A stretch of DNA of 46,364 bases from a virus (Duplodnaviria > Caudoviricetes). The stretch lies in the IMG/VR virus record IMGVR_UViG_3300020045_005878, positions 1 through 46,364 of that record; one strand, written 5' to 3'. Under the pieces are notes generated by a model. The model ran no database searches, was not told the origin of the DNA, and worked only from the letters and a program-made list of their open reading frames with translations. This document shows positions 1 through 46,364 of the stretch, in pieces. Positions within the stretch are counted from its first letter, which is position 1. Every line of letters begins with the position of its first letter. A program made the position numbers and the translations under genes.

Positions 1-121
1 AAGATGGTTGGCAGACTTGAATATCAAATGCTCCTTATATACCAAAATGAAGTGCAGAGGGTGATATATTATGAATGTAATAATAACTAATAAATAACTT
101 ATGGCTCAAGTAAGCTCAATG
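1..121 (+). repeat. 121-bp terminal overlap (copy 1), assembly circularity signal
   Basis: Identical to 46244-46364; the gene at 101 starts within it. Confidence 0.95.
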
Positions 122-3100
122 AAAGGTCGTGTGAATACTCCAACTCCAAAAGCTAAAGAATTCAATCCAAATACAATAAATGAGTCTGTTAATCCTTGGG
201 CTTGAGGAATTAAAGCTCAAACTACTTCGTATAGTTGAAAGTCATCACAAGGTGATAAACTCCCAGTTATTGAGGAAACTCCACTTAAAGACCCATTCGG
301 TAATTATAATCCACTTACTCCACAACAATCAATACCAAATACTCCTATCACTTGAGCTGGGTCTACTTCGGTAGATAGTTGAACAAATAACGTGAATAAA
401 CAATCTATAGCTATTCCAAAGGTTAAAATAACTAAGGATATTGTTGATTGAGCTAACGCGCGAAGGTCTCAAATCGGTCTTACTCCTGTGAAGGCTAAAG
501 ACCTACCTATCCCACAAGATTGAAGTACAGTTGCTAAAATAAACTCTTCTATTGATAGATGAGAATATAATACGGCATTTGCGTTATCCGCTTCAAACGC
601 AGTTAATGAGGTGGTTTGAGGTTGAGTTAAAAACATCTTACATTGAGCTTGAGTTGCATTCTGATTTGTAGGTAAAAACTATGCAGAATATGGTGTTGCT
701 AATCCAGCACTCGCTATCCAATGAACATATCTAATTGCTAAAAATAATCTAGAGAAGTTTATAGATGATACAAAGGACGCACCATATAAGATTATTGATA
801 ATCTAAAGAAACAGAGTCTAGGACAAATAGTTTGAAGTGAAGGTAAATCTTTACTTAAATGAACTTATGATAGTAGTTATGGAATAGGTAATAATCTAGA
901 TTGATTTGAAGATGCAAAGAATAGAGTAGACTATCTATTTTGAGTTAAGAGTTGAAGTCAAGAAGATTTATGGCAAACTCGTTCTGAAACTAGGGATGAG
1001 TTAAGGAATGCAAATCCTATGGATACTTCAAATAAAGCAACATACGATGAGTTGGATAAGTATACTATGTTGGTTGATGTTGCAATGGATTTAATATCTA
1101 CTGTTGGTATTACTTCTTGAGCATCGTCGGTTACTCGTCTTACATCTATTGCTAATGAGGGAAGTGTTATTGCTCCTCTATTCGCTCCAGTTGCTATAAC
1201 AATTGAATCACTAGTAAATCCTTCTCTATCTTGAATGATGAGAGTTGGGTGAGCTGTGGCAGTTTGAGATACTTTGTCTTATTCTCTTACTTGAAAAAGA
1301 CTATGAGCTTGAGACAAAGCAAGCGAAGAAGCAGTAAATGCACTAGAATTTGGTTGAGCTATATGAGCTACTTTTAAATGAGTTGGTTATGTAGCTCCAA
1401 AGGTTGCAAAACTTGTTACAGATAATATGCCTAGTTTTGATTCTATGGTTAAGAGTAGTGCAATTAAGGAGCTTATTAATACTAGTGAGAGTGTAAAGAA
1501 AGAGTTTATGAAGGGTTATGAATATGCTCAGAATCGTATTATGAGTAGTATGGAAGATGCGAGGGGTCAAAGAGGAAGTATTAAGATTTGAGATGAGAAA
1601 GATACAATTATAAATAATATTGATTTTATACCAAAGAAGAATATAAATCCAAAGAATCCTATTGAGTCTAAAAAGTATCTTGATATTAATGAGATTACAA
1701 GAGAAGCTAAGATTACAAATCCAGAGGCAACTGCAGAACAGTTAGACGAACTTGCAAAAGAAACACAAAGACAACGCTCGTCTCAACTTAAAGAAGAGCT
1801 AAAGAATCGTTCTTGATTTAGAGAGAAGCTAAAAGAAGAATGATACATAAAAGAAGGTGATGATAGTATCGGTTGATACGCAAAATGAATATTAGAGTAT
1901 GTTTCTACAAAATGAAACATAGCTAACAAAGATGCGTGAATCCAGAGAGTATCAAAGATGGCTTGAAAAGAAGTATTAGACACTCCAGATATTGATATGA
2001 GAGCTACAAACTTTCAAGCTAAAGATATGATGACAAAGTGGAGAGATATTATGAAGCCATTTGATTATGTTGATGAGGGTTGAGTTAAACGAACAGCGGA
2101 AAACTTCTGAGATTATGTTATAGCTCGCCGTCAATATGAGTTGGCATTAATAAATCCAAAACGAGTTGTTTGAGATATGAAGAGTGGTGATATTATAAAA
2201 AGATACAAAACGCTATACCAACAGTACGATACATTATTCTCTCCTCAATTAAAACAATTAAAGGAGCTAAATGACACAGCACTCGCTCATTTGAAAAACT
2301 CTTGAATAATATCTTCTGAATCAAAAGAGAAGATGGAGGGTATTGATGTGTATGTTATTAGTAAGTTTCTAGATGAATGAGACCATCTATTTGCAGGAAG
2401 AAGCGTAGGTACAAATTCACTTAAATCTATATGAGAAGGTAGTGAGAGAGAAATGAGTTATTATGTAATGAAGAATCAATCAGAATACTATGCTAGGGTT
2501 GTACTAAATTCAAATAGAAATAGAATGGCAGTTAGACTAGCTAATGATATTAGAGATTGATGAGTTCCTTGATTTAGTTTAAGTGATGAAATAACATCTC
2601 CAAACTATATATCTTTCTTTGATGATTGAGTTAAGAAATATATAAATGGTACAAAGGATGTGATTGATTATATGAAGAAAGAGATGAAACTAGTTCCAAC
2701 ATCCCAGCTCCATTCACTTGTAAGACCATTTGCAGAAGTAAGTAGAATTGCTAAAATGGGAATTACAGGAGTTATGGCTCCATTCAAACAACCTGCGCAA
2801 ATCATTGTAGAAATGGTAAATGCTTGATTAGATTCTATAGCTAAAAATAAGTGAGCATTTGCTCCAGAAGAAGTTTTCTATTGAGCTACTAGAATATTAA
2901 AAGAGGGTGCAAATAAGTTATGAGCAAATTTCAAGCTTACTGAGAATGAAGAGGCTAATAAATATCTTATGGCTCTTATGCGCCATACTTGAGTAGATTG
3001 AGTGCAATTATTTAAGAATGAGTTTAGTTCTAAGATATGACTAGACCTTTCTGACTTAATTGATTCTGAGTTATTGAAGAAAAAAGTCGATTGGCTTTCA

Positions 3101-4651
3101 CCAGAGGAAATAACAAAATCAATATTATCATTCCCAAAAAAATGAATAAGTTTATATATGAGATGACTTAATCATTTCTTCTGAGAAGCAGAGCTCCATA
3201 CTTCTCGTATATCTGTGTTTAGCTGATATATTCAAAATACAATATGAAAGGGTGAGATGGTAAAGATTGCTAAGACCTTTCTGAATGATGATTGAATATT
3301 GAATACAGAAAGATTCCGTCAAGCACTTCTAGAACAAGGTACAGATTCTTCAATAGCATCATCTCGCACAGTTGATACTTGGAATTTTACCAAGGCAGTA
3401 GATGAGGTTCAGAAACTAAATAAGGTTGTTATGTATCTTACATCTTCATTAACAGAAGGTACAAGAAAAACCGTTATGCCAATATCTAAGATATATTATT
3501 GAGCAGGTAAGGCGGCAATGTGAGATAAGTCTCGACTAACTCAATTATATGCTGCTTGATGAATAACAACTTGATTAATGAGTCTTGCGTATTATCTTAA
3601 TGAAGTAAATTCTACTCCAGAAAATATTGAAGCTCGAAAATATGATGGTAGTCCTTGAGAATTATGAATATATTATGGAACAACAAAAAAACCAGATGGT
3701 AGCATAGTTGCAAATAAGATTGCAATAAACGCGCTACCAGATAGTCTTGTTTGAATAACAAACGCTTGGCAAGCAATATTCGCATCTTGAGAGAATGTTC
3801 CTAATTGAAAAAGAATACTTTGACAAATGGTAGCAAATAAGCTTATGTTAGCTAAATTTAATTGAACTTGATTCTCTTGGAATCTTCAATCAGTACCTCT
3901 TCTTGATATAATTTCACAAATATCAATACCAGATGTATCTATTGGTAAGAAAAATTCTTCCGCCTGATTGTTAGTTGCAAATATGACTAATAATATGTTT
4001 ACTTGACCAGAGGTTGATAACATTATTAAAGATGTATTCCAGAGTAGGGCAAATGATGTAAAGAATTTAATTACTTGGTTTGCGGAAAAGAATTGAGTAG
4101 ATATTGAATGAGTTACAAAATGAAGCGTAGACCTTTATCAAGTGACCGATATGGATAAATATCTAGCAGAAGGTTGATTTACAAAGTTTATGTGAGATAT
4201 GATGAGAATTTCAAAGAAAGAACTATCATCTTACTCAGAAGAAGAAACTTCATTAATAAGTGATGTTAATAAGGCTAATCTAGATAAATCGCAAGAGTCT
4301 CAAAAAATAAATATGAGTGTTGATAAAAAGATAGCTTGATGGAAAGATAAGTCTATAGAAGAAAAGAGAAATATTATCTCAGAAGTTACTTCTCTTATGT
4401 GATGAAGTAGGGAGGAAGCATCTAAGAAGATAAAGAGTAGATTATGAGTCTCATCCAATACTTCTATGGAGAATAGAATTGAATCTCTATCATCTGAAAA
4501 CTACTTTGATTTAATCTTGAAGAAACTTCCAAAAGAAGAAAGACGGCAAAGACTAATGGATGATTATAAGAATTGATTAGTATCAGATACAAAAGCAAAA
4601 TCTATCGTTAAGATTTCTAAAGAATACGACAAATCTATAGATGCTAAATAG
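101..4651 (+). CDS. Large (~1516 aa) probable internal virion/DNA ejection protein; C-terminal half reminiscent of LPD38-type large polyvalent proteins
   Basis: ATG 101 and TAG 4649-4651 in one code-25 frame; track fragment 3299-3502 is in frame; last gene of a podovirus-like structural arm; motif DTWNFTK..LNKVVMYLTSSLTEG loosely resembles LPD38. Confidence 0.7.
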
Positions 4652-5377: not shown

Positions 5378-5462
5378 TGGTGCGAAACCTCGGACTCGAA
5401 CCGAGAAAGCGTAAGCAAAGGATTTACAGTCCTCCGTAGATTGCCATATCTACAAGTCGCGC
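5378..5462 (-). tRNA. tRNA-Tyr (GTA)
   Basis: Reverse complement folds as a cloverleaf: loop CTGTAAA, long variable arm, T-loop TTCGAGT, encoded CCA end. Confidence 0.88.
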
Positions 5463-5465: not shown

Positions 5466-5540
5466 TGGAGCAGAATGCGTGGATTTGAACCCGCGAACCC
5501 AACGTTGAAGGTTGGTGTGTTACCACTACACTAATTCTGC
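5466..5540 (-). tRNA. tRNA-Gly (TCA), decodes the reassigned UGA codon
   Basis: GCAGAAT/ATTCTGC acceptor stem with G1-C72, C2-G71 and U73 (Gly identity elements); anticodon stem CCAAC/GTTGG with loop CT-TCA-AC; short variable loop; CCA end. Confidence 0.9.
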
Positions 5541-5746: not shown

Positions 5747-5822
5747 TGGCAGGTAACTTGAGAGTCGAACTCAAACTTTATCGCTTTGGAGACGATTGCA
5801 CTACCAATTATGCTAATTACCT
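5747..5822 (-). tRNA. tRNA-Trp (CCA)
   Basis: AGGTAAT/GTTACCT acceptor, G73, loop CTCCAAA, T-loop TTCGACT, CCA end. Confidence 0.9.
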
Positions 5823-5823: not shown

Positions 5824-5897
5824 TGGTTCTAGGTGATGGAGTTGCACCATCTACTACGGATTATGAGCCCGTTATGTTACTGTTACAATAACCTAGT
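5824..5897 (-). tRNA. tRNA-Met (CAT), probably initiator type
   Basis: Loop CTCATAA, anticodon stem ACGGG/TCCGT, 1:72 mismatch, atypical T-loop TGCAACT, CCA end. Confidence 0.75.
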
Positions 5898-6007: not shown

Positions 6008-6034
6008 ATTATATAGAAATATATTAAATGTCAA
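6008..6034 (-). promoter_or_regulatory. Promoter TTGACA-N15-TATAAT driving the tRNA cluster
   Basis: Perfect hexamers at 6034-6029 and 6013-6008. Confidence 0.75.
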
Positions 6035-6298: not shown

Positions 6299-6325
6299 AT
6301 TATACTATTTTAAATTAAAAGTCAA
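6299..6325 (-). promoter_or_regulatory. Promoter TTGACT-N15-TATAAT
   Basis: Hexamers at 6325-6320 and 6304-6299, upstream of the basic protein. Confidence 0.65.
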
Positions 6326-11249: not shown

Positions 11250-11276
11250 ATTATACACATAAAGATTAAATGTCAA
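11250..11276 (-). promoter_or_regulatory. Promoter TTGACA-N15-TATAAT
   Basis: Perfect hexamers at 11276-11271 and 11255-11250. Confidence 0.75.
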
Positions 11277-12030
11277 AAGATAATTTAATTTCCTCTATAA
11301 TAGATTCTTTAATTATCTTTCTCCCTTCCTCTATCATATCATACTTCACATCGAATATAGGTTCAACTAGATATTCATCTCGTATTTTCTTTGCGTATTC
11401 GATATTTAAATTTGCTATCTCGTCTATTCATAAGCTAGGAATATCACCAACCTTTAATCAAATAAGTTGTATTCTCTCATCTCAATTATGGAGGAAATTT
11501 CAAATATCTCATTTAACGAATCTATCCATAAGGATTCTTAGCCTTACGATATGATGAAGTTGCTTTGGGTCATATCAGAACTTTTCTATCTTATGGACTA
11601 TAGAAGGATACGGATGGCGCAAAGCCTCGTACTTCTCCAACATCATTCAATAGCAAGCCTTTAAATACAATTTCCCCATAGTCTCTTGTAGTGGAATGAA
11701 GAACTTTCTTAGTTTATCTGAGCCTATAAAATATGGAGTATTAAGAATCTCTATGAAGTTTATATTGCACTTAACCGCACTATCAATATATGCGCGAATA
11801 TCCTTAACATCTATTAACCCTCAACCAAACTCATAAGTAGAAGAAAATGGTTTTGAGTTCTCAATTATATCGTCTAACTTAGGAAGTATAATTGCCTTAT
11901 AATCAACATCCGATTCCGCCGTATCAAGATTATAGTTTTGGCTACCATATACTGCAACATAGAATATGTTATGTCATTTGTCTTCCAAAAACTTCTTAAC
12001 TCATTCAAGATTAAATTTATCTTCTTCCAT
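11266..12030 (-). CDS. Pol-beta superfamily nucleotidyltransferase (RlaP/YcgL-like, 254 aa)
   Basis: YVAVYGSQNYNLDTAESDVDYKAIILP signature; C-terminal GYDPKQLHHIVRL. Confidence 0.85.
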
Positions 12031-12048
12031 ATTAAAATAAATTATAAA

Positions 12049-12918
12049 TTAAAAATCTCAATAAGCAACTTGAAAGCAAGTAAGTCCCATCTCACGCCAA
12101 GCCTTAACAACTCGGTCTCTATCGTCAAATACCCCTCTCACATTACACTTAGGAAGAATATACTTCTCGGCGATTTCCCGTTTAACTATTGAGTCACAAC
12201 GCGAGTCGTCCGATTTCCTCATAAATAATTGGAAGTATTGAGTTACGTTATCCGATATCCATTCAATAGTCTCATCTCGACAATCGTCTTTTCTTCAACT
12301 AACAATAATAATCTCACGTCAAGTATTCTCAATAATTTTAAGCAAATCCCTCACATCCTTATCAACAATATCTGTTCATACCTTTGAATAATCGTAAGGA
12401 CTCCGTCCGCTCATATGAGCTAATGTTCAATCAATATCGAATATATAAGCTTCTGGAAGACTCTTGTCTTGTACTAGCTTGGGAGAGTTAATATTTTTAT
12501 TTACGCAATATTTATTGTATGTGTCAAGTATTACTTTAGCTCCAACTCGCGCGCTTCATTCTCGTTTTGAATCCCTCTCAATACATTCCCATAGTGGAGT
12601 ATCAAACTCTTTTACTTCCACTTCATATCAATATTGAGATGCTAGATTCTTATAAAAGGCGATGTGTGGATTATCTGTCCCTAGGTGGGTGTTGTCTACG
12701 ATGATATATGGGTACATCTCCATCATAAGACTCTCAACATTTCATCGTTCATATGCAACTACTTCTTTCTCATTGCTCTTTGAGTATACTCCTTTATGAA
12801 GTTCTTGACGAATTGTATCTTTATTTAATACTATAGACATACTATCTTTAGCCTCATTATTCGCCCACGAGCTTTTACCAGATGCTTGCAAACCTTTTAA
12901 TAGAACTAATTTTTTCAT
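12049..12918 (-). CDS. pseT: Polynucleotide 5'-kinase/3'-phosphatase (T4 PseT-like, 289 aa)
   Basis: P-loop GLQASGKS, HAD motif FDIDGTLA, VSGR, FDDRDRVV..WR..GL.CFQVAYGDF. Confidence 0.92.
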
Positions 12919-12930
12919 AAGTTTTTTGTA

Positions 12931-13158
12931 TTATTTAATATATATTCTTGGATATTTAATACTCTTTACATATCATTTATCCTTACATTTCTTCTCAATA
13001 CGGCGAAGGCAAGCAGTTAAAGCTAATCATTGTTCTACTACAACTTCTCAATCTATTTCTTTTTGAACCGAGAAATATATTTTATTTGTACTACTATCAT
13101 AATTACTTGATACAATTATAGGACAAAGAGTCTCGATAAGGTCTCGTCATTGGTTCAT
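12931..13158 (-). CDS. Hypothetical protein (75 aa)
   Basis: Code-25 ORF between the ligase and PNKP genes. Confidence 0.65.
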
Positions 13159-13164
13159 AAGTTT

Positions 13165-14052
13165 TTAGTTAAATGCTACTGATTCTGGATTTCAATCAAT
13201 TATATCTAATGCGATTCTTGCAATCTTTTGAGTAGATAGTTTAGATAGTCTATTGAAGTTTATAATCCCCATCTTAGAAATAGAACCAACTTCTTCTTGA
13301 AGAAAATCGTAATACGTCATTCATATAATCTTAGATATATCCTTACGTTCAATATCTTTATCCTCGTTCTGCTCTATCTTATTCATAACCTTGCGGATAC
13401 GCTCGATATTCACATACTTACTAACCAACTTCATCTCAGCATCATCACTTGCTGCATTACCGAATACGATTGCATTATCTTCCTTGAACTCATCTCAAAC
13501 TATTTTCCCATAGCATTCATTACCAAACTTATTTACGAATTTCTCGTTCTTTACTACTACTCATTCTCCAATAGGTCATAGAGTAGATTTACCAACAAAC
13601 TCCATAAGATTATCTATTGTTGGATTTGTAATAACGGCGAACGTATGAGGAGTGCGAATTTTATAGTCTTTTGCAACACTTCTAACATATTCTTGACTCA
13701 TTCTATTTCATTCCTCGTTCTCTATATCAAAAATATAGAAATGGGAATAATTTTCAGCGTTGTATGATGTAATCGTATGTGGGACAAGCCACTCTCCATA
13801 TAGTCTATGAAGTGGATATAGTCTTAGATATTCGCAAATTCCCTTATGCCCCTTACAGTATTCTACCGCACCTCGGAAACTTCCGAGAGTTACATCTTGT
13901 GTGCGACTTCAAACGTGGATTTCACTATCCTCCATCCAAATACTCAAATTCGCACCATCTACTTTCTCTTGAATAGTACAAACTCATTGTAGTAATCCTT
14001 CTGTCTCATCCTTTCCCATACGATAGATTTTACCGTATCACTTGAAGCCCAT
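13165..14052 (-). CDS. RNA ligase (Rnl2-like ATP-dependent nucleotidyltransferase, 295 aa)
   Basis: Motif I QEKVDGAN, GSR, LYGEW, FYIFDI, GEGVVVKN motifs. Confidence 0.88.
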
Positions 14053-14596: not shown

Positions 14597-15904
14597 CTAA
14601 AAGTTCCAAAGGCTTAATTCTTGTTCTGTGGCGGGAGTAAATAATCAACCCCTATTAAAGTCTATCTTAAATACTTGCTCTACTCTTGCGGTTCATATTC
14701 TATTCTTACTAATCAGCATAGTAACAACGGCGATATTCTTTATCTTATCGTCCATAAATAATCCGCTCTTCTTCCTCCATTCATAGAAAGGAGAGTAATA
14801 GAATAGATGAATGCCGACGTCTGTGTTGTTGCGCAAGAAGCTACTTCAATAGAACCCACCATACATCCTAATGCTTTCCTCATCCGCGCCTTTCTCTAGA
14901 TTAGATAGGTCAATAAGGCTAATTTTTGTCTTCTTAACAAAGTTCTGGATGCGGCGAGCGTATTGTGTATACATATCTTGCTCGGTAACTTTATGGATGT
15001 TGATTAGACCAATATAATCTATAAATACAACCTCTGGCTTTATCTCTAGTATTCTGGCGAATATCTTACTTAGCTCATACTCCTCATCAATAAGATAAAA
15101 ATCCTTCTTGTGCTTATCTAACCAACCAAAGTCTACACTATGAGACCCATCTTCTACCGAATGAGAGTTGACTCTCTCCTTATTAGCCATTATGTTTGTT
15201 ATAGTAAAGCTCTTCTCATTCTCTAGTGTGAAGAATGCTACCTTTACTCCTTGGTCTAGAAGATTCGTTATCATATTATAAGCTAATTGAGACTTACCTA
15301 AGTTACTAACTGCGCCAATTCGATACGTTCGTCATTTCTGGATTCATTTAGTGTAATGGTCTAGGAACTCAAGATTATCTCAGAAGCTATGACCAAATAA
15401 CTTCTTACCTTGACGACTCTCAATATATCCCATTGTATCTTCAATAATAGAATCTAGACTATACTCAGATGAGTCTAGGTTATTCATACTCAATAATCTA
15501 TCTGCATAATTTATAATCTCACCACTATCAATCTCTCAATCCTTTACGCTCTTCATTAAATTATCTGCTATCTTTGCTACTTCTGAGCGGCGACTTGCCT
15601 TCTTCATCTTATTAGCATAATAGCCAATATTTTGAGGAGAATAACCACCTTCAACAATATCTATAATAGCGGAATTTCCTCATACAATTTCCAATTTACC
15701 CATATCATCTAATTTATCCCTAACAGTGACAATGTCAATAGGAGAGTCAGAAGCTACGAGTAATGAGATTGCATTAAATATATTTTTATTTGATTCTAGA
15801 AAGAAGTTTTCTTCTGTAATTCAATGGAGCTCGGTTGTTTCTCAATGGAGGAGACTTCCTAAGTAAGCCTTTTCCATATCTTCTTTTATAATTTCTGCAC
15901 TCAT
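14597..15904 (-). CDS. dnaB: Replicative DnaB-like helicase (435 aa)
   Basis: N-terminal DnaB domain (PIDIVTV), Walker A GAVSNLGKS, FFTLE, VVFIDYIGLI, ISKNR; includes track ORF 14846-15274. Confidence 0.92.
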
Positions 15905-28694: not shown

Positions 28695-28721
28695 TTGACT
28701 TTTATTATATTTATGTATACT
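28695..28721 (+). promoter_or_regulatory. Promoter TTGACT-N15-TATACT upstream of terL
   Basis: Hexamers at 28695-28700 and 28716-28721. Confidence 0.65.
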
Positions 28722-28752: not shown

Positions 28753-30438
28753 ATGAAAGAAGAGGAAGAAGAGATAAACGAAAGTTGAGTAGAGCCGATA
28801 GGCGTTAGACGAGTTAGTAGTCCGCGCGGGGCTACGCGTAGGTTGACTATTGATTGAGTTCCAAGTAAGAGAAAAGGTAAGACTCCTTGACGAAAGAAGG
28901 TAAGTGAGAAGACTAGGCTTAGTAGGAGTATTGTTAAGAAGCCTAAAGTAGTAGAAGAACTACCAAAAGAGTTTCAAGAGATTGAGCTTCTATCTAATGA
29001 GGAACGTAGGCAAGAGTTAGTTGCTCTCGCCGATTTACTTGAGAAGAGGAAGAAGTATTATGGTATAGTTGATACGGTACTAGGTATAACAAAGCAACAA
29101 GAGGTTATAGAGTTGCTAAAGAGAGTTGAGGATAGATATAAATGGTATTTGTATTATGGTTGAAATGGTAGCGGTAAAACCTTTCTATGAGCCTATGTGA
29201 CCGTTTGTCTTGCATTAGGTAGAGATACTCGCCATTACAATTTGCCGTATCTTGGTGAGAAGAAGAATATATGGGTAGTTACTAAGAGCTGAAGTAATAT
29301 CCAATCAACCATAGACCCTTATTTGCTTTGAGAGTTTAGTAAGACTAGAATACCTCCTGAGATGATAGATGGGAATCCTCATCGAGATAATAAGATATTG
29401 AAATGAGTTAAGTTAAAGAACGGATGCCAAATAAAGATAATGACGTATGACCAAGAAGGCGAGGGACTCCAATGAGGTAACCCAGACTTCGTTTGGCTAG
29501 ATGAGGAGCCGAGAAAGCACGATGTGTGGATGGAGTTATTTGCTCGTACTCGTGTGAAGGGGAGTGAGATGTTGATTACGATGACTCCACTTGCTTGAAA
29601 GACTCCTGTGTATGAGTTTTTCTTTAATGAAGAGGCTAGTGAGATTGATACTGCGAAAGTTGTGATAAAGGTTAGCGCTAAGGAGAATCCATATACCGAC
29701 CATCGGCTATTCTCTTGATATTCAAATGAAGAGTATCTTCGCCGTGTTGAAGGTAGCTTTGCTCCTCCAAGCTGATTGGTATACTCGGAATTCAATCCTT
29801 CTGTCCACGTAATTCGTCATCTAGACCCAACTAACAATAACTTCCCAGATACTGAGTTCAAGTATTATCGTTCTATAGACTTTGGTACTTCCCATCCAAT
29901 GGCTGCGATATTCGCCGCTGTTGATTGAGATGATAATATATATATATTTGATGAAATATATATGAAGAATACACTATTATCTGATTTTGCTGAAATATTC
30001 CACGAAAAAAGTAAATGATATGATTTTGAATATACAACTAGGGATACGGCTGGTGCTCGTGAATGATTAGAACTTCAAGCACTTTGAATTAGAACTATAA
30101 GAGCTAATAAACATTCAAGAGGTCTAGATGGTAATGATATGAGTAATCGCCGAGCCTGAATAATGAAGGTTAATAACCTTTTATTTAAAAGAAAGATATT
30201 TGTATCTGATAGATGCAAGAATATAATATCTGAGTTCTCCAATCATTTCTATAAGGAAGGTGGGAAGAGGGATGGTGAAGTTGAGAAGGTTAATGATGAT
30301 GCACTTGATGCGCTTCGTTATCTTATATTCTCTTATTCCTCTCCTAAGTCTAAAACATATAAAGAATCAAAGTATATTAAAAAATACAAAGAATCCCATA
30401 GAAAAGAAATAATAGAAGCTTATAAATCTAACCTATAA
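28753..30438 (+). CDS. terL: Terminase large subunit (561 aa)
   Basis: Walker A YGGNGSGKT, Walker B FVWLDEE, ITMTP, nuclease SIDFGTSHP and NDDALDALRY. Confidence 0.95.
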
Positions 30439-30441: not shown

Positions 30442-32298
30442 ATGGCAAAAGCATCAGATAATAAATTAAAGGAAGAAGAGTTTGACCTAGATACGCTCCC
30501 TTGACAAATTCATCAAAGATTGTGGTATATGATGAGCCTAAAACAGCATAGATATTGGAAGTATCTTCAAATTCGTAATGAGTACAAACAACTAAAGTCA
30601 GCTAGTCGTGATAATGATGATAGTAATTATGGTATGAATACTTGATTTGCTTTAGTTAATACAAAGGCTTCTGAGATTCTTGAGAACTTTCCAGAATGGA
30701 GCTTTTTGCCGCTAGACGATGATGCACGTGCTAATATTAAAGCTAAGAAACTTCTTTGGTCTCATCTATGGCTTACAAGTCGTACTGATGATGCAGTTGC
30801 AAAGATTGTATTCGATGCTATGAAGTACGGGACAGGTTGGGGTATGGAGTATATTCGTACCGAGTGAAGGGAAATAAATATTCCTTCTATGGTAGATGGA
30901 AAGATAACTTACAAGAAAGAACTTGTAAAGGATTATGATGATGTATACCTTGAACATATACCTTGGGAGAATGTATATGTGAATAATACAACACTTGAAC
31001 TATCCACAGAAGCTATTATAATTCGCCATTGGGAACGAGACGAGTTTATAGCTAAATTCTCTGTTAACCCTCTATTTAGTTGAGTTAGTGAGAAGAATAT
31101 CCCACTTGGTAAACGATATTATAATCTTGCACAATCTGACCTTGTTGATGAGAAGAATTATACTATAGTATTTAATCCTTCTAGTGTTCCTCGTGAGCTT
31201 AGTAAGATAGTTTCTGTTATATCGTATTATAATAAATCAAGAGACCAATATATAGTTATAGCAAATGGAATATGGATAAACCCACTTCCAAATGATGAGA
31301 AAATGCCAATTCCATTTACTCATAAACAAATACCTCTAGTTAATTTTACTGACCATTATATAGAAGATGATGTTTATGGTATGGGTGAGTTCGACATCAC
31401 AGAATGAAGTCGAGCATTAAAGAACTCAGTTCGTTCTCTTGGCATTGAGGTTATTAAGGCTCAATTCTGATTTACTACTATATCTCCTACTGCGGATTTT
31501 GATGAAGCTAGTCTACAAATTGGACTTAGAAGTTTCGCGCGTGTGGATAAAGAAGATATTGGTTTTTATGCACCAAATATAAATGGGGCAAGTCTGAAAG
31601 ATATGGAGCAGAAGATTGATGAGGATATTATTATAGAGACTTGAGTAGACTTCAAGTCACAACTTGTTTCACATAAAACAACTGCAACTCAAGCTTGAGA
31701 GAAGACAAAGAGCGCACAACGCCGTATTAACCTTTGTTTGAAGATTAATGCTTATAATTTCTTTGAGCGTCTTGGTCGTCTTCGTATGAGTAATATAGAG
31801 TTCTATTATGATGGTAAGCCTCTTGAGATTTCTGTTAAGGGTATGAATATTAGTCCAGAAGGTAATGTAGAAGCTATTAATGGAGGTTATGGAACATTCC
31901 TACTAAAACCAGAATTTCAAAAGGGTAAGACTATGATTATACCTATGGTTGAAAGTTTGATTAATGATAGTAGTGAAAGAGATAAGGCTAATTATATTGA
32001 CTTTGTTCAATTTGTTGCTAATATGAAGGATGCTCAAGGTGCTCCTGTGGTAGACCCACGAGCTCTTATAGAAGCTTGAAGAGGTATTATGGATAAGTCA
32101 GTTGATATTGATAAGTTGTTAGAAAATAAACCAACAGCGAAATCGCCAGATAAAGTACTTCAAGAAGCTTGATTAAATGATAATGCTTCTGTTCAACCTT
32201 GAGAGAATCCACAAGAACAATTAGGAGGATTCGTACCACCAGAACAACGAAGTGGAGCTCCTGTGATAATGCCGTCTAGACCTAACTCAATTCAATAA
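30442..32298 (+). CDS. Portal protein (618 aa, P22/podovirus-like)
   Basis: Follows terL; DAMKYGTGW, DDVYGMG, KTTAT motifs; includes track ORFs 30889-31083 and 31738-32079. Confidence 0.85.
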
Positions 32299-33809: not shown

Positions 33810-34880
33810 ATGACTGTTAACTTTAATACTGGAAGCGCGAATTACGCAGAAGGTAAATCGCTGCTTTCCCCACTCATTCAGGAAATCGTTGACCAAACTA
33901 TCGAACAGGTAGGACTTGACGAGGAACTTGAAAAATATGGGTTCGTACGAGAAACTCCTCTTACTCCAGATGGTATTATTACCTCTATGGTAGGTCCTGA
34001 ACTTCTTGCGCAGATTGATGAAGATGAGGAAGCTCCTGTTATCACAATCCTTCAAGGGTTTGAAAAAGGATACACACTCAAAACATTTGCAGGACAACAC
34101 AAAATCACTAAGGTATTTAAGAAATGGATTGAACAGGGAGCACAAATCTCTGGAGCTGATTCTTCTGTTAAAGCAGAACTTAATAAGCTTAAAGATGCCG
34201 TAGTTCGTCTTACTCAAGGACGTATCCTTACTATCAATGCACTCGTTGCAAAGACTTATGGTAATGGGTTCTCTGTAAGTACTGCATACGGACCAGGAAG
34301 TGCATCTCCAGATGGAGCGGCTCTCTTCTCTGCATCTCACATCATCAAGAAAACAGGAGGAACGTATTCAAACCTTGCGTCTGGTGCTCTCACTGCAATT
34401 ACTCTTGAGGCTGCAATCGTTTCACACAAACTTACACTCCGTTCAGGTAATGGATTCCGAATCAAGACTCCTGAGGTATTCGACCTTCTCGTTCCACGAG
34501 CTCTCGAAATTACTGCTCGAAAGATTCTCAACTCTACTTCTGACCAAGCTGGTCTATATGCAGGTACAGGTAGCAATGCTAACCTCCTTAATACATTTAT
34601 GTTCCAAGGGTCAAAGGTTAAGCTCGTTGTTCTTGATATGCTAGGACAGCCAGATAAAGATGGAAGTGTAATTGGTGGAGCTAATGCAGATACAATGTGG
34701 TTTCTTCTTAACCGAGAACTCGCACTTATGGTTAAAGCATTCCGTCTATTCACACTTTGGGATAACGAAGTTACAATGTACGAAAACGAGGCAACCTCCT
34801 CGACATTTGTTAAACTTGATTCCCACTTTATGACAGAACATTTTAATCCAGAATGTATTGTTGGTTATGCAGGTGCGTAG
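33810..34880 (+). CDS. Major capsid protein (HK97 fold, Mu gpT-like, 356 aa)
   Basis: DGAALFSASH, LLVPRALE..ARKILNS, WFL motifs; intact in both codes; followed by a terminator. Confidence 0.92.
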   Translation: MTVNFNTGSANYAEGKSLLSPLIQEIVDQTIEQVGLDEELEKYGFVRETPLTPDGIITSMVGPELLAQIDEDEEAPVITILQGFEKGYTLKTFAGQHKITKVFKKWIEQGAQISGADSSVKAELNKLKDAVVRLTQGRILTINALVAKTYGNGFSVSTAYGPGSASPDGAALFSASHIIKKTGGTYSNLASGALTAITLEAAIVSHKLTLRSGNGFRIKTPEVFDLLVPRALEITARKILNSTSDQAGLYAGTGSNANLLNTFMFQGSKVKLVVLDMLGQPDKDGSVIGGANADTMWFLLNRELALMVKAFRLFTLWDNEVTMYENEATSSTFVKLDSHFMTEHFNPECIVGYAGA

Positions 34881-37440: not shown

Positions 37441-38325
37441 ATGGCAAATGTAAAAGCATTAGTTATAGCGTGATGAGGTTGAGGTTGATATCACCAATGA
37501 TGATGAGGTGGGGCAGGTTGATATCAATATATATCTTCATTATCCATATTACCACAAGCATACTCAGTAACAATCGGTAATTGATGAGCTTGAGATGCAA
37601 CAGAAGATTGAACGTGAACTAGTTGACAAAATTCTGTTTTTGCATCTATAACATCTATTTGATGATGAGGATGATGAAGTAGAAAACCTTCTCCTAATTA
37701 TCATACAGTTGGAGCTAATTGATGATGTGGCTGAGGTAATAGTGCCTGAGAAGATTCTCCTTGAACTACAGTATGAATAGGAAGTCAATGATATAATTGA
37801 TGAACTTGAAGTGGTATTTGAACTGGTACGTATCATCATTGATGATGATGATGAGGATGAGCTTGAGCATTATGACAAAGTTGTACTTGAAGCTGAGCAT
37901 CTTGAGATAATTGAGGAAATTGATGAGATGGATTATCAAATAGTATTTCTTGAAGTTCTGTATATTATGCAGGTGGTTGATGAGGAGCTACATATTTCAC
38001 GCCAACAAATACAGTATGAGCATGATGACTATGAGGATGATGAGCTTGAGGCTCTCTAGCATCTGCACCAATAAATGGTACTGCTAATACTTGAGGCGGT
38101 TGAGGAGGTTCTTCTTATAATTGAAGTGCTTGAGGAAATTGAGGAAGCGGAATAATTATTATTTCTTATGCTTCAAATTGAAGTGACGGTATTTCTACTT
38201 TATCTACTGGTGGTACAATAACTACTTCTTGAACACAAACAATACATACATTTACAACTAGTTGAACATTTACGGCAGTTGCAAGCACGGTTACAAACAA
38301 TTCAAATTTCTTTTTATTTTTCTAA
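37441..38325 (+). CDS. Glycine-rich virion protein (294 aa)
   Basis: ALVIAGGGGGG...GGGGAGG...GGSGIIIISY; most Gly encoded by TGA. Confidence 0.85.
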
Positions 38326-39001: not shown

Positions 39002-39023
39002 TTCTTTAAACAAAAATAAATAT

Positions 39024-39245: not shown

Positions 39246-39257
39246 AACAAATTTTAT

Positions 39258-39859: not shown

Positions 39860-40530
39860 TGGAAGATTGTCCACAATTTACAGAACTAGAACTAGATATT
39901 CCGAGAGAATGAGAACACATATATGATGACTTATTTGGCTCTACCTCATCTAGTAGTGAGGTTTATAATGTGTTTTATCCACATACAATTTTAAATCAAG
40001 GGGCACAGGCGGATACAAGAATGGCTTGTTCTCGTTATTGAATTATCCACGCAATTAACGCACAAAATCTTGCCGTTGCTAAGATAGATTGAATGCGTAC
40101 ATATGAGTACAATCCAGAGGTAATGTGGGGAAATTATTTGAAAGTGAATCCATCTGCAAAAGTAGAATGAGCAACACTACAATCCTCAATATCTCAGATG
40201 GAAGATTTGAATCTAATTACTTGAAGTTCTAAACTTCTATCTATTGATTCAATGAAGGATAGTTTGATTAATTTTAAGCCTATATTTACTTGAAGCAAGC
40301 AATGCGATTGGAGTTCTGTGAGAGATTTTAAGAGATATAAACTTTGAAGCGGTTACGCCCATATATTCTGTATAGTAGGTTTTGATGGTAGCGGGTGGAT
40401 TGCAATTAACTCATATTGACCTTCTAATGGAGTATTCCATATTGCATATGAACTCACCTCATCTCTATTCTCTTGCTATTCATTATCTGATAGTAGAGAC
40501 CAAGAAGTATTCAATAAACTTAAAAAATAA
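39859..40530 (+). CDS. Papain-like (C1 family) cysteine peptidase (223 aa)
   Basis: Oxyanion ILNQG, catalytic ACS, HIFCIVGFD and INSYG motifs. Confidence 0.82.
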
Positions 40531-40531
40531 T

Positions 40532-40699
40532 ATGAAAGAGATTTGGATAGGGAATGATTGAAAAGAATACATACGGCAGAAGGTTGAATGCTTTACTAGA
40601 GTTATGGGTTACTGCCGACCAGTTAGTCAATTCAACAATTGAAAGAAGAGTGAATTTTATAGTAGAAAATATTTTAAAGAATATTTAATAATAAAATAA
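40532..40699 (+). CDS. Stand-alone NrdD C-terminal glycyl-radical peptide (55 aa)
   Basis: VECFTRVMGYCRPVSQFNNGKKSEFYSRKYF matches the class III ribonucleotide reductase glycyl-radical loop. Confidence 0.85.
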
Positions 40700-40701
40700 T
40701 T

Positions 40702-41733
40702 ATGACAGCAGAAACGAATTACAGATATGGCGAAATACCATCTTGAGTTGTTGATTGAGTAAACAAAATATTTACTCTTCTTAATCAAATAGACAAGATA
40801 GAAGAGATTTATATCTGAGGTGCTAGTTATCGCTCATTTTCATATACTTGAAATACAATAACTCTTACAGATGCGCCAACTACTGAGACTTGAGCTCCAG
40901 AAGTTGATTATTGGATTGTAACTACTACTTCTACTACTTGAAGCGTTACATTTGGTAATGTAATAGATGATGTATATTTGAGACTATCTCAATATCGTAC
41001 ATCTCGTCAATATCCACTGGACTTAGTTAAATCCTATGTTAAAGAAGGTGTGAGGGTTTTGAATAACTATCGTCAGAATAACTCAGATAAGACGTGAAGT
41101 TACTCATTTAATAAAGCTCCAGACTTTACGGTTAGTACTTATTCTACAACTCAATTTCTATCTTGAGCTATTAATAAATTTGTTCCTAATAATGGGAAGG
41201 TTATTGTTAAGTACGGCGATATTGTAAATTACATTTGAAGAACTATTTGAGTAAGTCTAAATAATATATCTTGATTAGATATTGAGTATTTTGCTTGAGA
41301 TAAAGTTCTTATTGGTTATCCAATATCCTGAGTAGTTAAAAAAATAAATGAGGTTGTTATTAATTACAATCCACTTACATTTGTTTCTCGTGATGAGTTC
41401 GTAATAGGTAGAACAAAATATTGCTATACTATTATTGATTGATATTTGTTTTTGCCTTATTCTGCAAATGATAATGAAAAGGTAATGGTTACTTATACAA
41501 GATTTAATAATGAACCAAGTGTTGAATCTGATGTTATTGATATTAACCAAGACTACTTCCATATTATATCTTTATACGCTCTCTACAATGTTTTAATGGA
41601 TAGGGAGGATGATAGGTACTTAGTTCAACAAAAGAAGTTCCAAGAGCAGTTTAAATGGTATCGTAGCTATATGAGCCGACAGGTAAATGGTATAAATAAT
41701 AAAATACCATCTCGCCACTTAAAAGCATTTTAA
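40702..41733 (+). CDS. Head-tail adaptor-like virion protein (343 aa)
   Basis: Includes track ORF 41446-41733; C-terminal IDINQDYFHIISLYALY typical of podovirus adaptors; small N-terminal beta module. Confidence 0.65.
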
Positions 41734-41752
41734 GTAATCTAATTATAAATTT

Positions 41753-43318
41753 ATGGCAAAAATAAACAATGCTACAAAACGTATACAAGACCTAAGCGGT
41801 TGAATAAACCGACTTAAATCAGATACTAATATTGATGATAATCAATGTGTCGTAAGTAATAACTGGTGAATGGAGGGTAATAAGTTTGCATCCATCAAAT
41901 GATTCGCATCTGTTCATAAGTTTGGTACAACAAACTCACGCATTCAATGACTATCTAGTTATGGTGATTATGTAATATCTATACAAGATACTAAATTATA
42001 TGTCCATAATATTGTTAATGGATTGTGAGCTAATATTACAATATCTTGAATATCAAATCTTGATGATTTCAATATAACAATAGGTAAGTTTGTAGATATT
42101 TATATTATTGTTACAAATGTTGATTGAAGCGATACTCCAAGAAGTTTTAAGCTGGTAGAAAGTACAATGGTAATTACTAATGATAGTAGTAGTTTTGTTG
42201 GATTTACTTGAACGCCAACTTGTTCCATATTCTATCAGGGGCAATTATTGTTTAGTGGAATCCCATCGTCTCCTTCTGTGTTGTATTACTCTAAACCATT
42301 CATATCCACAGATACAACTCCTTCTTGGTATAAGTTTGATGCTTATCCAGCTTGAGCTCAAACAATATGAGATTGAAGTCCTATAGTTTGATTTCTTACT
42401 TGACAAGATAAATTATATATTTGAAAGAAGAACTCGATATGGAAGGTTGATTGAGTAAGTGATACTGGAGCTTGAGCAGATGCTAAATTCTCTTATACGG
42501 TTACTAAACAAACATCTACTTGACCTATTAATCAAGAGAGTTTTATTAATGTGATGCAAGATATCTTCTTCTATGATGGTCATTCCATTCGTAGATTAAG
42601 TTATGAGGCTAACACACTTGCACTTAAAGACTCATCTATCTCAGACAACATACAACCATATCTAGCTAGTTTTCCGCAAGACCAGAAGAGCGCAACATCT
42701 TGGTTTTCTTATCCATACTATAAATTAGCTATTCGTCAAGAATTATCTAGTGATAATGATTTTGTATTTGCGTATAATGTGATTAATAAATCCTTTATTA
42801 CTCAAACTTGACTCATAACTCGCCATTCTACAAACTCGTATTTTGATAAGAGTATTGCGTACTTTGGTAGTTCTTATGATTGAACTGTGTATAGGGATAA
42901 CTTTACATATACTTATGATTGACAAGCAATAGATAGAAGTTATATAGGTAAGGCTCTTGATTATGGAGATTCAATAGATTATAAACGACTTACAGAAGTT
43001 GAAATAAGTTGATTAATAAGCCCTTGACATTTAGTATATATCGATATAATTAAAGATAGTCAGATAATTGATACTCGTGAGATATTCTTCGCATCTTCTT
43101 TATGAGCAACAACTTGAGCTTCTGTTATAGGTGCATCTACGTCTTGAGCATTTTGAGCAAATTCAGAACCACTTATTCCGTATGCTATTCGATTTGAGTG
43201 TTATGATGATGGAAGAACTTTCCAATTATGAGTAAGAAATAATAGTACTTGATATTTTGAAATACAATACTTTAATACTATGTATAAATTCTTGAAGGCA
43301 TTTGAACTTCATTACTAA
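41753..43318 (+). CDS. Tail nozzle / DNA stabilisation protein (P22 gp10-like beta-propeller, 521 aa)
   Basis: DLSGGIN start, GPINQESF..V..DIFFYD, ISDNIQPY, DYGDSIDYKR motifs. Confidence 0.75.
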
Positions 43319-43333
43319 ATTATTAAATAAATT

Positions 43334-44365
43334 ATGGCTACATATAATATAGAATCTTTCTATAGAACTACTCTACAATGAACAATACTTGCATCTGATA
43401 CAGTTGCATCTATTACGGCGAATTGAGGATTAAAGGTATTTAATGTGCCAACTGGAACATATTCGGTTGGTAATCCTTGATTTGTTACGGTATCTCCTAA
43501 CACAGATAATGAAGAAATATTTGAATTTACAGCGGTAAACTCAACAACAAAGGTTCTTACTATATCTAAGAGAGGTATAAATAAAGCATCTACCTCATTA
43601 ACAACTGATGGTTCATATACCGCAACTTGAGATTACAACAACACAATATATACTCGTTCTCATACAATTAATGATGCGGTTCGCTCTGATATAAACCATA
43701 TCCATATAAACCAGAACTTTTCTGCTATTGAGTTGAAATCTACTGCGAATGGAAAAGGTGCAAGTCAAGTATGAATAGAAGATGCGGGTGGTTATTTTAC
43801 TTCTACTAATATGGAAGGTGCGCTTCAAGAAGCATTGAGTGTGCTTGCTCCAAATGTTAAAGCTACTGCAAGTGTTTATTGAGTTAGTAAAATGAGTGTT
43901 GCTCCTGTGAGTGCGTCAGACCCTATTGCGGTTAGTGATAATGATACTAGAGTTAATCTAAAATATTGTATCGCATATAATAGTGCAACACAATCAATTA
44001 CAGATAATACTTGAGTAACATATAATATTAATACTTATGAGACAAATGATAGTAGTATGAGTGCTACTACTTGAAGAATTATTATACCAACAACTTGACA
44101 ATATATAATTTCTTGATGTATTCAATTTGCATCTAATGCTACTTGAATAAGAGAGGCTATTGTTACAAAGAATTGAATAGCTACAACTCTTTCTGATATA
44201 ACACGCTCTGCTTTTGCTGGTTGACCAAATTCAATAAATTTCTCATTTATAGTTTCACTAGATAGTAGTGATTATATTCTATTGAGATGTTTTCAAAATT
44301 CTACCTGAGCATTAAATATAACATCTTGAGCTTCTAACTCATATCTAAGTGTAGCTAAATTATAA
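43334..44365 (+). CDS. Tail fibre/spike with C-terminal C1q/TNF-like domain (343 aa)
   Basis: STNMEGALQE, ATASVYGVSK, TGRIIIPTTGQYIISG...VSLDSSDYI motifs. Confidence 0.7.
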
Positions 44366-44379
44366 CATAAATAAATTAT

Positions 44380-46323
44380 ATGGCAATAGACTTTAAAACT
44401 TGAATAGAGCAAGTTAATCAAAACGGAACAAATGTTGTAAAACAAGAACCATATGTTGATGCTACTCCTACAATAAAGATTAATACGGATGTAATGAAGG
44501 AGTACAATCCATCATATAATCCTACTGAGGCAAGTGGTGTCAGTGGGATTTTAGGTACTACTCCATCTACAACACAAACAACTACAACATCTGATACAAC
44601 AACTCAACAATCAACCGCTCCAGTTAGTAATGTGAGTGCTACTCTTGATAATGTAACAACTGCTCAACAAACTGCACAAAAAACCGCAGATGAGCAACTT
44701 GCTTTGGCTCAAAAAACTAGTGAAGAAAATAAGTCTCTTGCGTTACAACAAGAACAAGATAGAATAGCTCGTGAAACAGAATATGCAAAGCAGAAAGCAG
44801 AAAATGAGAAAGCTAATCTTGCTCAACAACAAGCATATGAAACAGAATATCAAAATCAATTAGCACAACGAGCACAACAACAAACAGATACAATAAAACC
44901 TCTACTTGATTCAGAGGCTAGTGCAGATAAAGCGGCGGCAGTTGAGATGAAGTTGAAGCAAGATAACGCAGAGAAGCAAGCACAAATATCTATGGATGTG
45001 GAGAAGCAACGCGCGGCTTTGAATATTAATCGTATGGGTCTTGCATTCTCTACTTCTGGAATAAATACGATTCTTTCTATTCACGACCAATGAACGACAA
45101 AACTTGCTGAACTTTCTTCTACTAATGCAACATCTCAAGCTAATCTTGCAGTTGCTATTGAGAAGAATAAAGTAGACCACGCGAATACTATGAATAAGAT
45201 TATTAATGATAGCGTTGATGGAATACTTGCTAGTAAAAAGAAAGTAAGTGAACTTATTACAACTACTAATAATAATATACTTCTTACTGAAAAGCAGAAG
45301 AACGACAACATCGACAAAGCAGTTAGTGACTATAGGAAAGAGAAACAAGCACAAGAAGATTCTATGTATCAAAAAGTACAAGAAGCATCTAATGCCACAA
45401 TTACTCGTGCTAATGCTATTGCTACTACCGTTCAGAAACAACAAGATAACTCAAGAAATGATTTGAGCGTTATGCTTCAAACTTGAGTATTATCCAAGAT
45501 GAGTCCTGCACAAATACTTCAACTTGAACAGAAGAGTTGATTACCTGTGGGGACTGCTAATTATATGATGAAGGATAGTGTTGTTAAGTCTATTGCGGCA
45601 AACCTAAGTTCTCTTATTTGATTTGGTATTGCACAAATTCCATCTGATACTCTTGGTCTTATGACCTCAGAGATTATGAATATGACGAAGATGGGTATCC
45701 CAACTTCTCAAGCAACAACCCAAGTTATGGATAAGTATCTTAAAAACAATCCAGACTATCAAGAAGCAGTAAAGAATATGAGCGCAGGTAGTAAACAAGC
45801 TACGGCTATTGCTAATGCTCAATACAAACAAGCTCAAACTGCACTTGCAGAGGCTAAAACTACAACAGAAGAAGAAAAGGCTCTAACACAAGTACAAACT
45901 ACCGCATTAACTAAAGCTAAGGCAGAAAATCAGTCGGCTATTATGCAAGCTCAAATAGCTAAATATAAGAAGGCTTGAACATCTAAATGAAGTGGAAGTA
46001 GCTGAGTATATCCTTGAATAGTTATGTGAGCAGATTGACTTCCATATAAACAAAGTGCTAAATGAACACTTACATCTGTAACAGGTGCAGCGTTTATTTG
46101 AGAAAGAAATTCACCATCTTGAACAATATATCTAAGAGCAGATGGAAGTGAGGTAAACAAAGCCTGACAGGTAGTAAAAGCTCCAATTAAAACATCAGAT
46201 GCTAGTATAAGTTGAGATACAAAAACTACTATTACTTGAACTAAAGATGGTTGGCAGACTTGAATATCAAATGCTCCTTATATACCAAAATGAAGTGCAG
46301 AGGGTGATATATTATGAATGTAA
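44380..46323 (+). CDS. Gln/Ala/Thr-rich coiled-coil protein, probable DNA ejection/pilot protein (647 aa)
   Basis: Joins track ORFs 44494-45093, 45190-45486 and 45661-45978; RMGLAFSTSG motif; TAA at 46321. Confidence 0.7.
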
Positions 46324-46364
46324 TAATAACTAATAAATAACTTATGGCTCAAGTAAGCTCAATG
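46244..46364 (+). repeat. 121-bp terminal overlap (copy 2)
   Basis: Identical to 1-121. Confidence 0.95.

Follow-up and report, generated by a model that had tools for sequence, protein, structure and literature searches.

The stretch of DNA analysed here (the window, 46,364 bp) is the whole of IMG/VR record IMGVR_UViG_3300020045_005878, a complete phage genome with 46,243 bp of unique sequence and a GC content of 33%. It is bounded by an exact terminal repeat, and IMG/VR lists it at 100% completeness. The genes lie on two divergent arms, visible in the skew: a minus arm with the early genes and a cluster of tRNA genes, and a plus arm with the virion genes (Table 1). We studied the use of TGA as a glycine codon in this genome, its tRNA with anticodon UCA, and its probable host. 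Sixty-three genes were hand-picked from the open reading frames (ORFs) of genetic code 25 and covered 88.4% of the window; one start was set one codon early.

ORFs of at least 100 amino acids covered 21.9% of the window in code 11, 31.7% when TAG was read, 49.9% when TAA was read and 80.3% when TGA was read. Reading through TGA thus gave clearly the highest coding density, and the dense packing of genes on both arms described in the initial annotation was confirmed. In-frame TGA codons occurred in 56 of the 63 genes, with 37 of 41 on the minus arm and 19 of 22 on the plus arm, so that the recoding is genome-wide and not restricted to late genes, as had also been proposed. TGA accounted for 463 of the 1008 glycine codons and for 3.4% of all codons in the 63-gene set. 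By construction of this set, 52 genes ended in TAA and 11 in TAG. Within the last ten codons of the genes TGA was found 13 times against an expected 18.7, hence without a stop-like excess, and the codon following the stop was TAA or TAG in eight genes and TGA in one (n = 63). A relic stop function of TGA at the ATGA overlap between the exonuclease and RusA-like genes was considered and rejected, because the exonucleases of relatives end near the read-through length.

PHROG profile scores were higher with glycine than with tryptophan at TGA in 16 of 17 proteins (e.g. glycine-rich protein, 195.9 versus 55.3 bits; HNH endonuclease, 112 versus 59 bits), in one case by just 0.4 bit; the exception was the RusA-like protein, for which tryptophan scored better by 0.3 bit. 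Six TGA columns of the terminase large subunit (TerL) were glycine in 44-46 of 46 distant homologues, and three TGA columns of DnaB were glycine in 21-22 of 22. In codon-versus-codon alignments with seven related records, TGA codons of the window stood opposite GGN 72 times, opposite TGA 77 times and opposite TGG not once (n = 223), so the TGA columns are not mainly tryptophan. In the reverse control, TGG codons of the window faced TGG 53 times and neither TGA nor GGN (n = 106). Furthermore, the DIDG and SGR motifs of T4 polynucleotide kinase-phosphatase (Pnk) and its C-terminal GDF have glycine opposite the window TGA. The motifs named in the initial annotation do contain in-frame TGA codons, namely GGNGSGKT in the TerL Walker A (29161), YQGTID (9476), QVAYGDF (12060), GIGGNHD (7214 and 7208, minus strand) and RGLG (35569 and 35575). 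By these four sequence-based tests (profiles, homologue columns, codon pairs and T4 Pnk), TGA is read as glycine genome-wide, as the initial annotation held.

At the TerL TGA columns, public protein records have tryptophan for 63 of the 65 close terminases and for none of the 46 distant homologues. The window's own public TerL record and the code-25 reading share 97% identity, which fits the 17 TGA among 561 codons, and tryptophan in the public records is also found facing GGN codons of the window (26%). For these reasons the tryptophan most likely stems from gene calling with table 4, and the close relatives that show it would therefore be recoded too. On this evidence the window belongs to a large TGA-recoded family, in which all but two of the close terminases look recoded. 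Its homologues comprised 65 close TerL (38-57% identity), 106 major capsid proteins (MCPs; 30-89%) and 54 close DnaB proteins (31-81%), and the contigs of several were 40-49 kb long. In IMG/VR, six records whose capsid match spans most of the protein (G001-G005 and L010) all gained strongly from reading TGA, and 11 loci with short capsid matches showed no such gain. G001 and G002 have 19 and 17 genes, respectively, in common with the 63 of the window. Scans with the gene next to the tRNAs, with a closer capsid alignment and with DnaB gave no further close relative. The best tblastn matches to terL among GenBank phages were PaP3-like Pseudomonas phages and Photobacterium phage PhCF1.2 (44-50 kb), which are only about 25% identical and hence show no family-level relationship.

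TGA was unevenly spread over the genes. The codons before a gene's first TGA amounted to just 22.7% of all codons. TGA was scarce in the genes for the capsid (0 of 32 glycine codons), the scaffold (1 of 12) and an SSB-like protein (2 of 22), the last two being putative labels, in part by position. One Gracilibacteria EF-G gene was likewise poor in TGA (1 of 58 glycine codons). TGA is thus avoided in abundant proteins and piled up in tail genes.

The tRNA with anticodon UCA has a canonical cloverleaf with one bulged base in the T-stem. With positions numbered by reading the predicted fold, it has G1-C72, C2-G71, U73, G10, U16, C50-G64 and C35, C32 and C38 in the loop, and an encoded CCA end. 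Tryptophan identity uses G73, whereas this tRNA has U73. A selenocysteine tRNA was ruled out by the length of 75 nt, the short variable loop and the match to Rfam family RF00005. For bacterial or Thermus GlyRS, the features G1-C72, C2-G71, U73, G10, U16 and C50-G64 count as glycine determinants (PMC9976931), and the first three also mark the tRNA(UCA) with which table 25 reads UGA as glycine (PMC8629427). The phage tRNA(UCA) is predicted to do the same.

Three relatives (G001, G002 and the distant G008) also carry tRNA(UCA), all with G3-C70, and those of G001 and G002 have the full determinant set; none was detected in the fragments G003, G004 and L010. Among 43 loci from a pattern scan of IMG/VR, seven had tRNA(UCA): G001, G002, G008, the unrelated but recoded G009, and three loci without TGA-specific coding gain. 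G008 and G009 were found via this tRNA and are therefore uninformative on its frequency. G009 (L080/L263) is a TGA-recoded 25-kb phage fragment without a tblastn match to the window, and its tRNA(UCA) is much like that of G002, which suggests exchange of this tRNA between unrelated code-25 phages. The three loci without TGA-specific gain, L065 (G010), L069 (G011) and L086 (G012), have a glycine-type tRNA(UCA) within large phage tRNA arrays, in each case without C38. A constant pairing of tRNA(UCA) with tRNA-Trp(CCA), as a safeguard for UGG, was considered and rejected, as the two were found together in three of five cases (the window, G001 and G002) and not in the stretches read of G008 and G009.

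In Absconditabacteria, CGA and CGG are predicted to be tryptophan codons and CGA use is below 37 per 10,000 codons, whereas Gracilibacteria vary only at CGG (PMC8629427). In the window, CGA was used at 61 per 10,000 codons (63-gene set). CGA codons of the window stood opposite arginine codons 38 times, 32 of these via other arginine codons, and never opposite tryptophan (n = 85). The MCP has CGA at the conserved arginines 217, 230 and 237, and these three columns were arginine in 62-80 of 81 sequences. Reading CGR as tryptophan lowered the profile scores of 10 out of 13 phage proteins. CGG was rare, with just six aligned positions (two arginine, no tryptophan); one CGG faces arginine in T4 Pnk. 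By these alignments CGA is arginine in the window, unlike in the extended code of Absconditabacteria, and this narrows the host toward Gracilibacteria and away from Absconditabacteria. In the relatives G004 and G005 (GC 28%), CGA was almost absent (3 per 10,000), as in low-GC Gracilibacteria contigs and in Absconditabacteria, so that CGA does not point to either host order in their case.

A metagenome scan for tRNA-Gly(UCA) returned 119 loci from 22 of 64 parts; 69 had a UCA tRNA, and 50 of these shared one conserved 79-nt type. Ten proteins from six of the 79-nt loci were looked up. Seven were in the collection, and all seven belonged to clusters named Ca. Gracilibacteria (five loci); the remaining 79-nt loci were assigned to Gracilibacteria by the common tRNA only. 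On the cellular contigs, reading CGR as tryptophan lowered the scores of all seven proteins, which indicates that CGA is arginine, and GlyRS was of the dimeric type. With the same script, TGA made up 50% of the glycine codons in 18 cellular loci (272 kb) and 45% in the window, and CGA was used at 53 and 67 per 10,000 codons, respectively. The phage tRNA(UCA), with 75 nt and A3-U70, is not of the 79-nt cellular type. C38 was present in 50 of 50 cellular tRNAs of this type, in four of five recoded-phage tRNAs and in none of the three phage loci without TGA-specific gain. The scan also yielded 15 long-arm tRNA(UCA) genes of 87-93 nt with a glycine acceptor stem (among them L100, L101, L105, L107, L110, L119, L133, L135, L136, L142 and L148), several on contigs with little TGA gain. 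Beside the tRNA-Gly(UCA) of one Gracilibacteria contig (L103:657-7993) lie phage-like genes, by eye exonuclease-, RecT- and replication-like, which are possibly a prophage.

The window contained 14 matches to TTGAC[AT]-Nx-(-10 box), most of them directly upstream of genes. The spacer was 15 nt in eight matches and 16 nt in two, compared to about 0.3 per length in shuffled sequences. In the relatives the spacers peaked at 16 nt (G002, G003, G004 and L010) or 16-17 nt (G001), with no peak in G005. Upstream of the Gracilibacteria-type tRNAs (50 loci within L087-L205, with 47 distinct upstream regions, nine of them without a match), a 16-nt spacer was found in 33 of 38 matches, whereas 50 standard-code phage loci had a mode of 17 nt (10 of 20). 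The Bacteroidota-type promoter motif, TAnnTTTG, occurred once in the window against 7.2 times in shuffles. An SD (Shine-Dalgarno)-like motif was found in 9 of 203 cellular leaders, in 0 of 29 window leaders and in 40 of 80 leaders of standard-code capsid relatives; its lack in the window is not significant alone, because the window leaders are nearly free of G (shuffle mean 0.39). T stood at position -1 in 108 of 203 cellular leaders and in 24 of 29 window leaders. In these figures, L092 and L096 (GC 32-35%) were the cellular loci nearest to the window. Promoter and leader signals thus fit a Gracilibacteria host, with which they are compatible without being diagnostic. Neither a Gracilibacteria promoter consensus nor a 15- or 16-nt spacer was found in print in a search that left out subscription papers, and the available part of PMC9297842 has nothing on SD use in Gracilibacteria. 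The spacers of all eight 15-nt promoters begin with TTT (TTTA in seven or eight), and G001 and G002 each have a spacer sequence of their own; the spacers may include a site bound by a phage regulator.

The code and the expression signals make Gracilibacteria (BD1-5) the probable host. The initial annotation had placed the host in either Absconditabacteria or Gracilibacteria; a code-25 host is still the best reading, and CGA as arginine shifts this choice to the Gracilibacteria side. We consider it likely that the window is a lytic phage of a Gracilibacteria cell that already reads UGA as glycine, with TGA as glycine in early and late genes alike. With somewhat less confidence, we regard it as a full-length member of a large and so far undescribed family of lytic phages of Gracilibacteria, which would also show that Gracilibacteria promoters work with a 16-nt spacer, in this phage 15 nt. 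No integrase was found in Pfam and PHROG scans (53 proteins) or in an NCBIfam scan (44 proteins), so the phage is probably lytic. In the proposed course of infection, the host RNA polymerase would read the TTGAC[AT]-N15/16 promoters and host ribosomes would translate the SD-free leaders. RF2 is reported missing in BD1-5 (PMC6851277), and in its absence UGA would be decoded from the first minute of infection. This would explain the TGA codons in DnaB and in the very first of the early genes, and the early genes would need no switch. The dimeric GlyRS of the host may charge the phage tRNA(UCA), which would top up UGA decoding and ease the demand of TGA-dense tail genes, with up to 62 TGA in 294 codons. 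Pnk, RNA ligase and nucleotidyltransferase genes near the tRNAs suggest tRNA repair; together with tRNA(UCA) these enzymes may counter tRNA cleavage by the host, in line with a proposed role of phage tRNAs against anticodon nucleases of the host (PMC10264068).

Several observations weigh against a Gracilibacteria host and this role of the tRNA. The tRNA(UCA) has A3-U70 instead of the G3-C70 used as a criterion for tRNA-Gly(UCA) in PMC8629427, as well as the T-stem bulge; G3-C70 is absent from the E. coli and T. thermophilus glycine determinants listed in PMC9976931. Compared over about 80 positions, the phage tRNA(UCA) matches Gracilibacteria tRNAs at 45-47, no more closely than it matches others. 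The relative G005 (80% complete) has four tRNAs and no detected UCA tRNA, so this tRNA is not needed across the family. The spacer mode of the window is one nucleotide below that of Gracilibacteria, and one standard-code phage group also peaks at 16 nt. No phage with CGA as tryptophan, which would serve as a positive control, was found among the long ORFs of G004, G005, G008 and G009 (contexts judged by eye). No spacer, prophage or Hi-C link to a host came to light, although no search of Gracilibacteria spacers was made. A GTDB scan with the capsid alignment hit no BD1-5 genome, no named Gracilibacteria protein occurred among the TerL, MCP and DnaB homologues, and a cluster look-up gave no host name for the close relatives. 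An Actinomycetes metagenome-assembled genome (MAG) was rejected as host: the 60%-identical capsid gene lies on a single 1,525-bp contig (L036, G007), which is probably misbinned since the same MAG has no terL match.

Phages and prophages with code 25 have been published for both Gracilibacteria and Absconditabacteria (Liu et al. 2023, PMC10746230), and only four of 38 putative Gracilibacteria phages longer than 20 kb were clearly recoded. Like the window, the phages in PMC10746230 carry many in-frame TGA codons in every class of gene, have hardly a gene that code 11 can read and have an inferred code-25 host. Their hosts rest on spacers, unlike that of the window, which rests on code and expression signals, and a phage tRNA-Gly(UCA) is not mentioned in the tRNA passages of that paper. 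Patesciphage RSA-ATP1 (Bouderka et al., bioRxiv 10.1101/2024.03.08.584096), whose Absconditicoccaceae host was proposed with no spacer match, resembles the window as a complete code-25 tailed phage without integrase, with four tRNAs including tRNA-Gly(TCA) and with the order terL, portal, three genes, MCP. By description, it differs in length (39 versus 46 kb), in TGA use (60% versus 89% of ORFs, 1.3% versus 3.4% of codons), in the other tRNAs (Met, Arg and Leu versus Met, Trp and Tyr) and in its lambda-like NinB/NinG/Exo/Bet genes with no Pnk or RNA ligase listed, both of which the window has. Code-25 gut phages have TGA in about 90% of genes, similar to the 56 of 63 here; the code-switching phages of standard-code hosts in the same study recode to Gln or Trp with a late bias, neither of which holds for the window (bioRxiv 10.1101/2021.08.26.457843). 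The window probably represents a new family; further tables of PMC10746230 may list members of this family with their hosts.

The same code-matched lifestyle in Absconditabacteria (SR1) or in other table-25 Patescibacteria (e.g. order GCA-2401425) is the foremost alternative, which we rate as rather unlikely. These hosts also read UGA as glycine (PMC8629427, PMC13695967), table 25 being the code given to GTDB class JAEDAM01 and probably to some further lineages (PMC13695967), and most published code-25 phages have been assigned to Absconditabacteria (PMC10746230). The CGA count of the window exceeds that of Absconditabacteria, with Strigamonas at 6.5 per 10,000, and a host with CGA as tryptophan would replace the three conserved arginines of the capsid protein by tryptophan. 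Against table-25 lineages that keep CGA as arginine this argument has no force. RSA-ATP1 speaks for this alternative, with frequent CGA, tRNA-Gly(UCA) and an equal gene count from terL (ORF09) over portal (ORF10) to MCP (ORF14). CGA makes up 0.91% of its codons against 0.065% in its proposed Absconditicoccaceae host, a 14-fold excess (PMC13059738 Table S6), so that frequent CGA may not exclude Absconditabacteria. Its TGA use of 1.3% likewise compares with 4.8% in that host. Either the host of RSA-ATP1 may be a Gracilibacterium instead of Strigamonas, or the CGA rule has exceptions.

A standard-code host on which the phage imposes UGA as glycine, through a tRNA(UCA) whose transcription from the promoters at 6325 and 6034 would come first, keeps a slight probability because the phage has its own tRNA(UCA), which the initial annotation did not mention. 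Such a course would fit the recurrence of this tRNA in three relatives, the two promoter-like sites and the TGA-free gene just upstream of the tRNA cluster, and the glycine-type tRNA(UCA) genes in three phage loci without TGA-specific gain and in long-arm forms on contigs with little TGA gain. It would amount to a glycine code switch, in contrast to the switches to Gln or Trp published for standard-code hosts. Against it, 37 of 41 early-arm genes need TGA to be read, including the first ones and DnaB; late genes show no bias, and a capsid gene with no TGA is the reverse of what code-switching phages show (bioRxiv 2021.08.26.457843). Neither a synthetase nor a release factor was found in the Pfam and PHROG (53 proteins) and NCBIfam (44 proteins) scans, in which more than half of the genes had no family. 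Ordinary bacterial GlyRS uses C36 (PMC9976931), which is missing in tRNA(UCA), G005 is recoded although no UCA tRNA was detected in it, and the Bacteroidota-type promoter motif is depleted. Least probable is a reading of TGA as tryptophan (code 4) or another residue, or a decayed or misassembled genome. It could draw on the tryptophan in public terminase records and on the 0.3 bit of the RusA-like protein. The former most likely reflects table-4 gene calling, TGA and TGG never faced each other at the DNA level in either direction, and six related records likewise gained from reading TGA, so that this reading was refuted computationally.

As far as the literature was searched, the following are new: the family, the recurrence of phage tRNA-Gly(UCA), the use of CGA to narrow down the host, and promoters with short spacers. 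The tRNA-Gly(UCA) of RSA-ATP1 was called unprecedented for a phage (bioRxiv 2024.03.08.584096), and a search that left out subscription papers found no second one in print; here it recurs in four family members (the window, G001, G002 and G008) and in the unrelated recoded G009. The genome anchors a family of at least 63 recoded terminase clusters (90% identity) whose proteins are apparently mistranslated, with TGA as tryptophan, in public collections. Gracilibacteria are tiny parasitic bacteria whose viruses are poorly described, and clearly recoded phages are scarce in print. CGA as arginine or tryptophan would offer a simple rule to split code-25 phages between the two host orders, and it questions the host of RSA-ATP1. 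A tRNA with A3-U70 and C38 provides a natural variant for how GlyRS accepts an anticodon with A36.

Table 1. Features of the window
Feature	Position	Strand	Remarks
Terminal direct repeat	1..121 and 46244-46364		exact, 121 bp
Plus arm	28753-46323, then 101-4651	+	virion genes
Minus arm	27279 down to 4803	-	early/replication genes and tRNAs
1516-aa protein	101..4651	+	no known family; 84 TGA
tRNA-Tyr(GUA)	5378..5462	-	one acceptor-stem mismatch
tRNA(UCA)	5466..5540	-	glycine-type, 75 nt; Rfam tRNA (RF00005) 47.8 bits; ARAGORN label 'SeC' from anticodon only
tRNA-Trp(CCA)	5747..5822	-	G73; 57.3 bits
tRNA, anticodon CAU	5824..5897	-	unpaired 1-72, probably initiator-like; 44.6 bits, lowered threshold
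TTGACA-N15-TATAAT	6008..6034	-	directly upstream of tRNA cluster
Basic 74-aa gene	6039-6263	-	TGA-free; just upstream of tRNA cluster
TTGACA-N15-TATAAT, second copy	6299-6325	-	upstream of the 74-aa gene
Metallophosphoesterase/nuclease	6768-8186	-
HNH endonuclease	8213-8728	-	14/14 glycine codons are TGA
RusA-like	8728-9192	-
Exonuclease	9159-9824	-
RlaP-like nucleotidyltransferase	11266-12030	-	RNA-repair-type set (11266..14052)
T4-like Pnk	12049-12918	-	RNA-repair-type set
RNA ligase	13165-14052	-	RNA-repair-type set
DnaB-like helicase	14597..15904	-	10 TGA
Class II glutamine amidotransferase-like	22816-23715	-	pairs with amidoligase-like gene
Amidoligase-like	23731-24912	-	pairs with glutamine amidotransferase-like gene
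TTGACT-N15-TATACT	28695..28721	+	before terL
Other promoters with 15-nt spacer	28256, 34939, 43024	+	start positions
Other promoters with 15-nt spacer	11276, 16203	-	start positions
Promoter with 16-nt spacer	32560	+
Promoter with 16-nt spacer	27531	-
terL	28753..30438	+	17 TGA; Walker A TGA at 29161; above Pfam cut-off
Portal, weak	30442..32298	+	by position and P22_portal match (E 0.0098, under cut-off); 11 TGA
MCP	33810..34880	+	0 TGA in 32 glycine codons; above Pfam cut-off
Glycine-rich virion protein (PF21722)	37441..38325	+	294 codons; 62 TGA, 32 GGN, five consecutive TGA
Tail/adaptor	40702-41733	+	weak PHROG tail match
Tail-appendage/nozzle-like	41753-43318	+	weak PHROG tail match
Virion protein	43334-44365	+
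647-aa protein	44380-46323	+	no known family

The gene layout makes a short-tail virion likely, the tail matches themselves being weak. The capsid protein is of the HK97 type; its look-alikes are viral, and the ESM Atlas label is 'Viruses' only. PDB sequence searches with the portal, nozzle and capsid proteins gave nothing meaningful. From its size and position, the 1516-aa protein is likely an internal or ejection protein. After the capsid gene the window has a terminase-small-subunit-like gene (judged by eye) and an HhH gene (34993-35724, plus strand), which sit before the scaffold gene in G001-G004 and L010. Further along the virion operon, a small membrane protein is followed by a putative papain-like protein with a Cys/His/Asn motif and without a family match (39024-40530, plus strand); the two are a possible lysis pair. 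A secreted early-arm protein (19790-20305, minus strand) has a lysozyme-like motif as judged by eye. The amidoligase and glutamine amidotransferase pair (22816-24912, minus strand) is missing from the relatives or common only in part.

The 1.5 kb between the arms (27280-28752) contains no convincing gene and has promoters in both directions. An inverted repeat (27560-27600/27883-27923) lies in this region with the GC-skew minimum close by, and the region is likely a control region or origin. Finally, a free-standing 55-aa gene within the virion operon (40532-40699, plus strand) matches the C-terminus of NrdD and is kept in G005 (61% identity over 36 aa).

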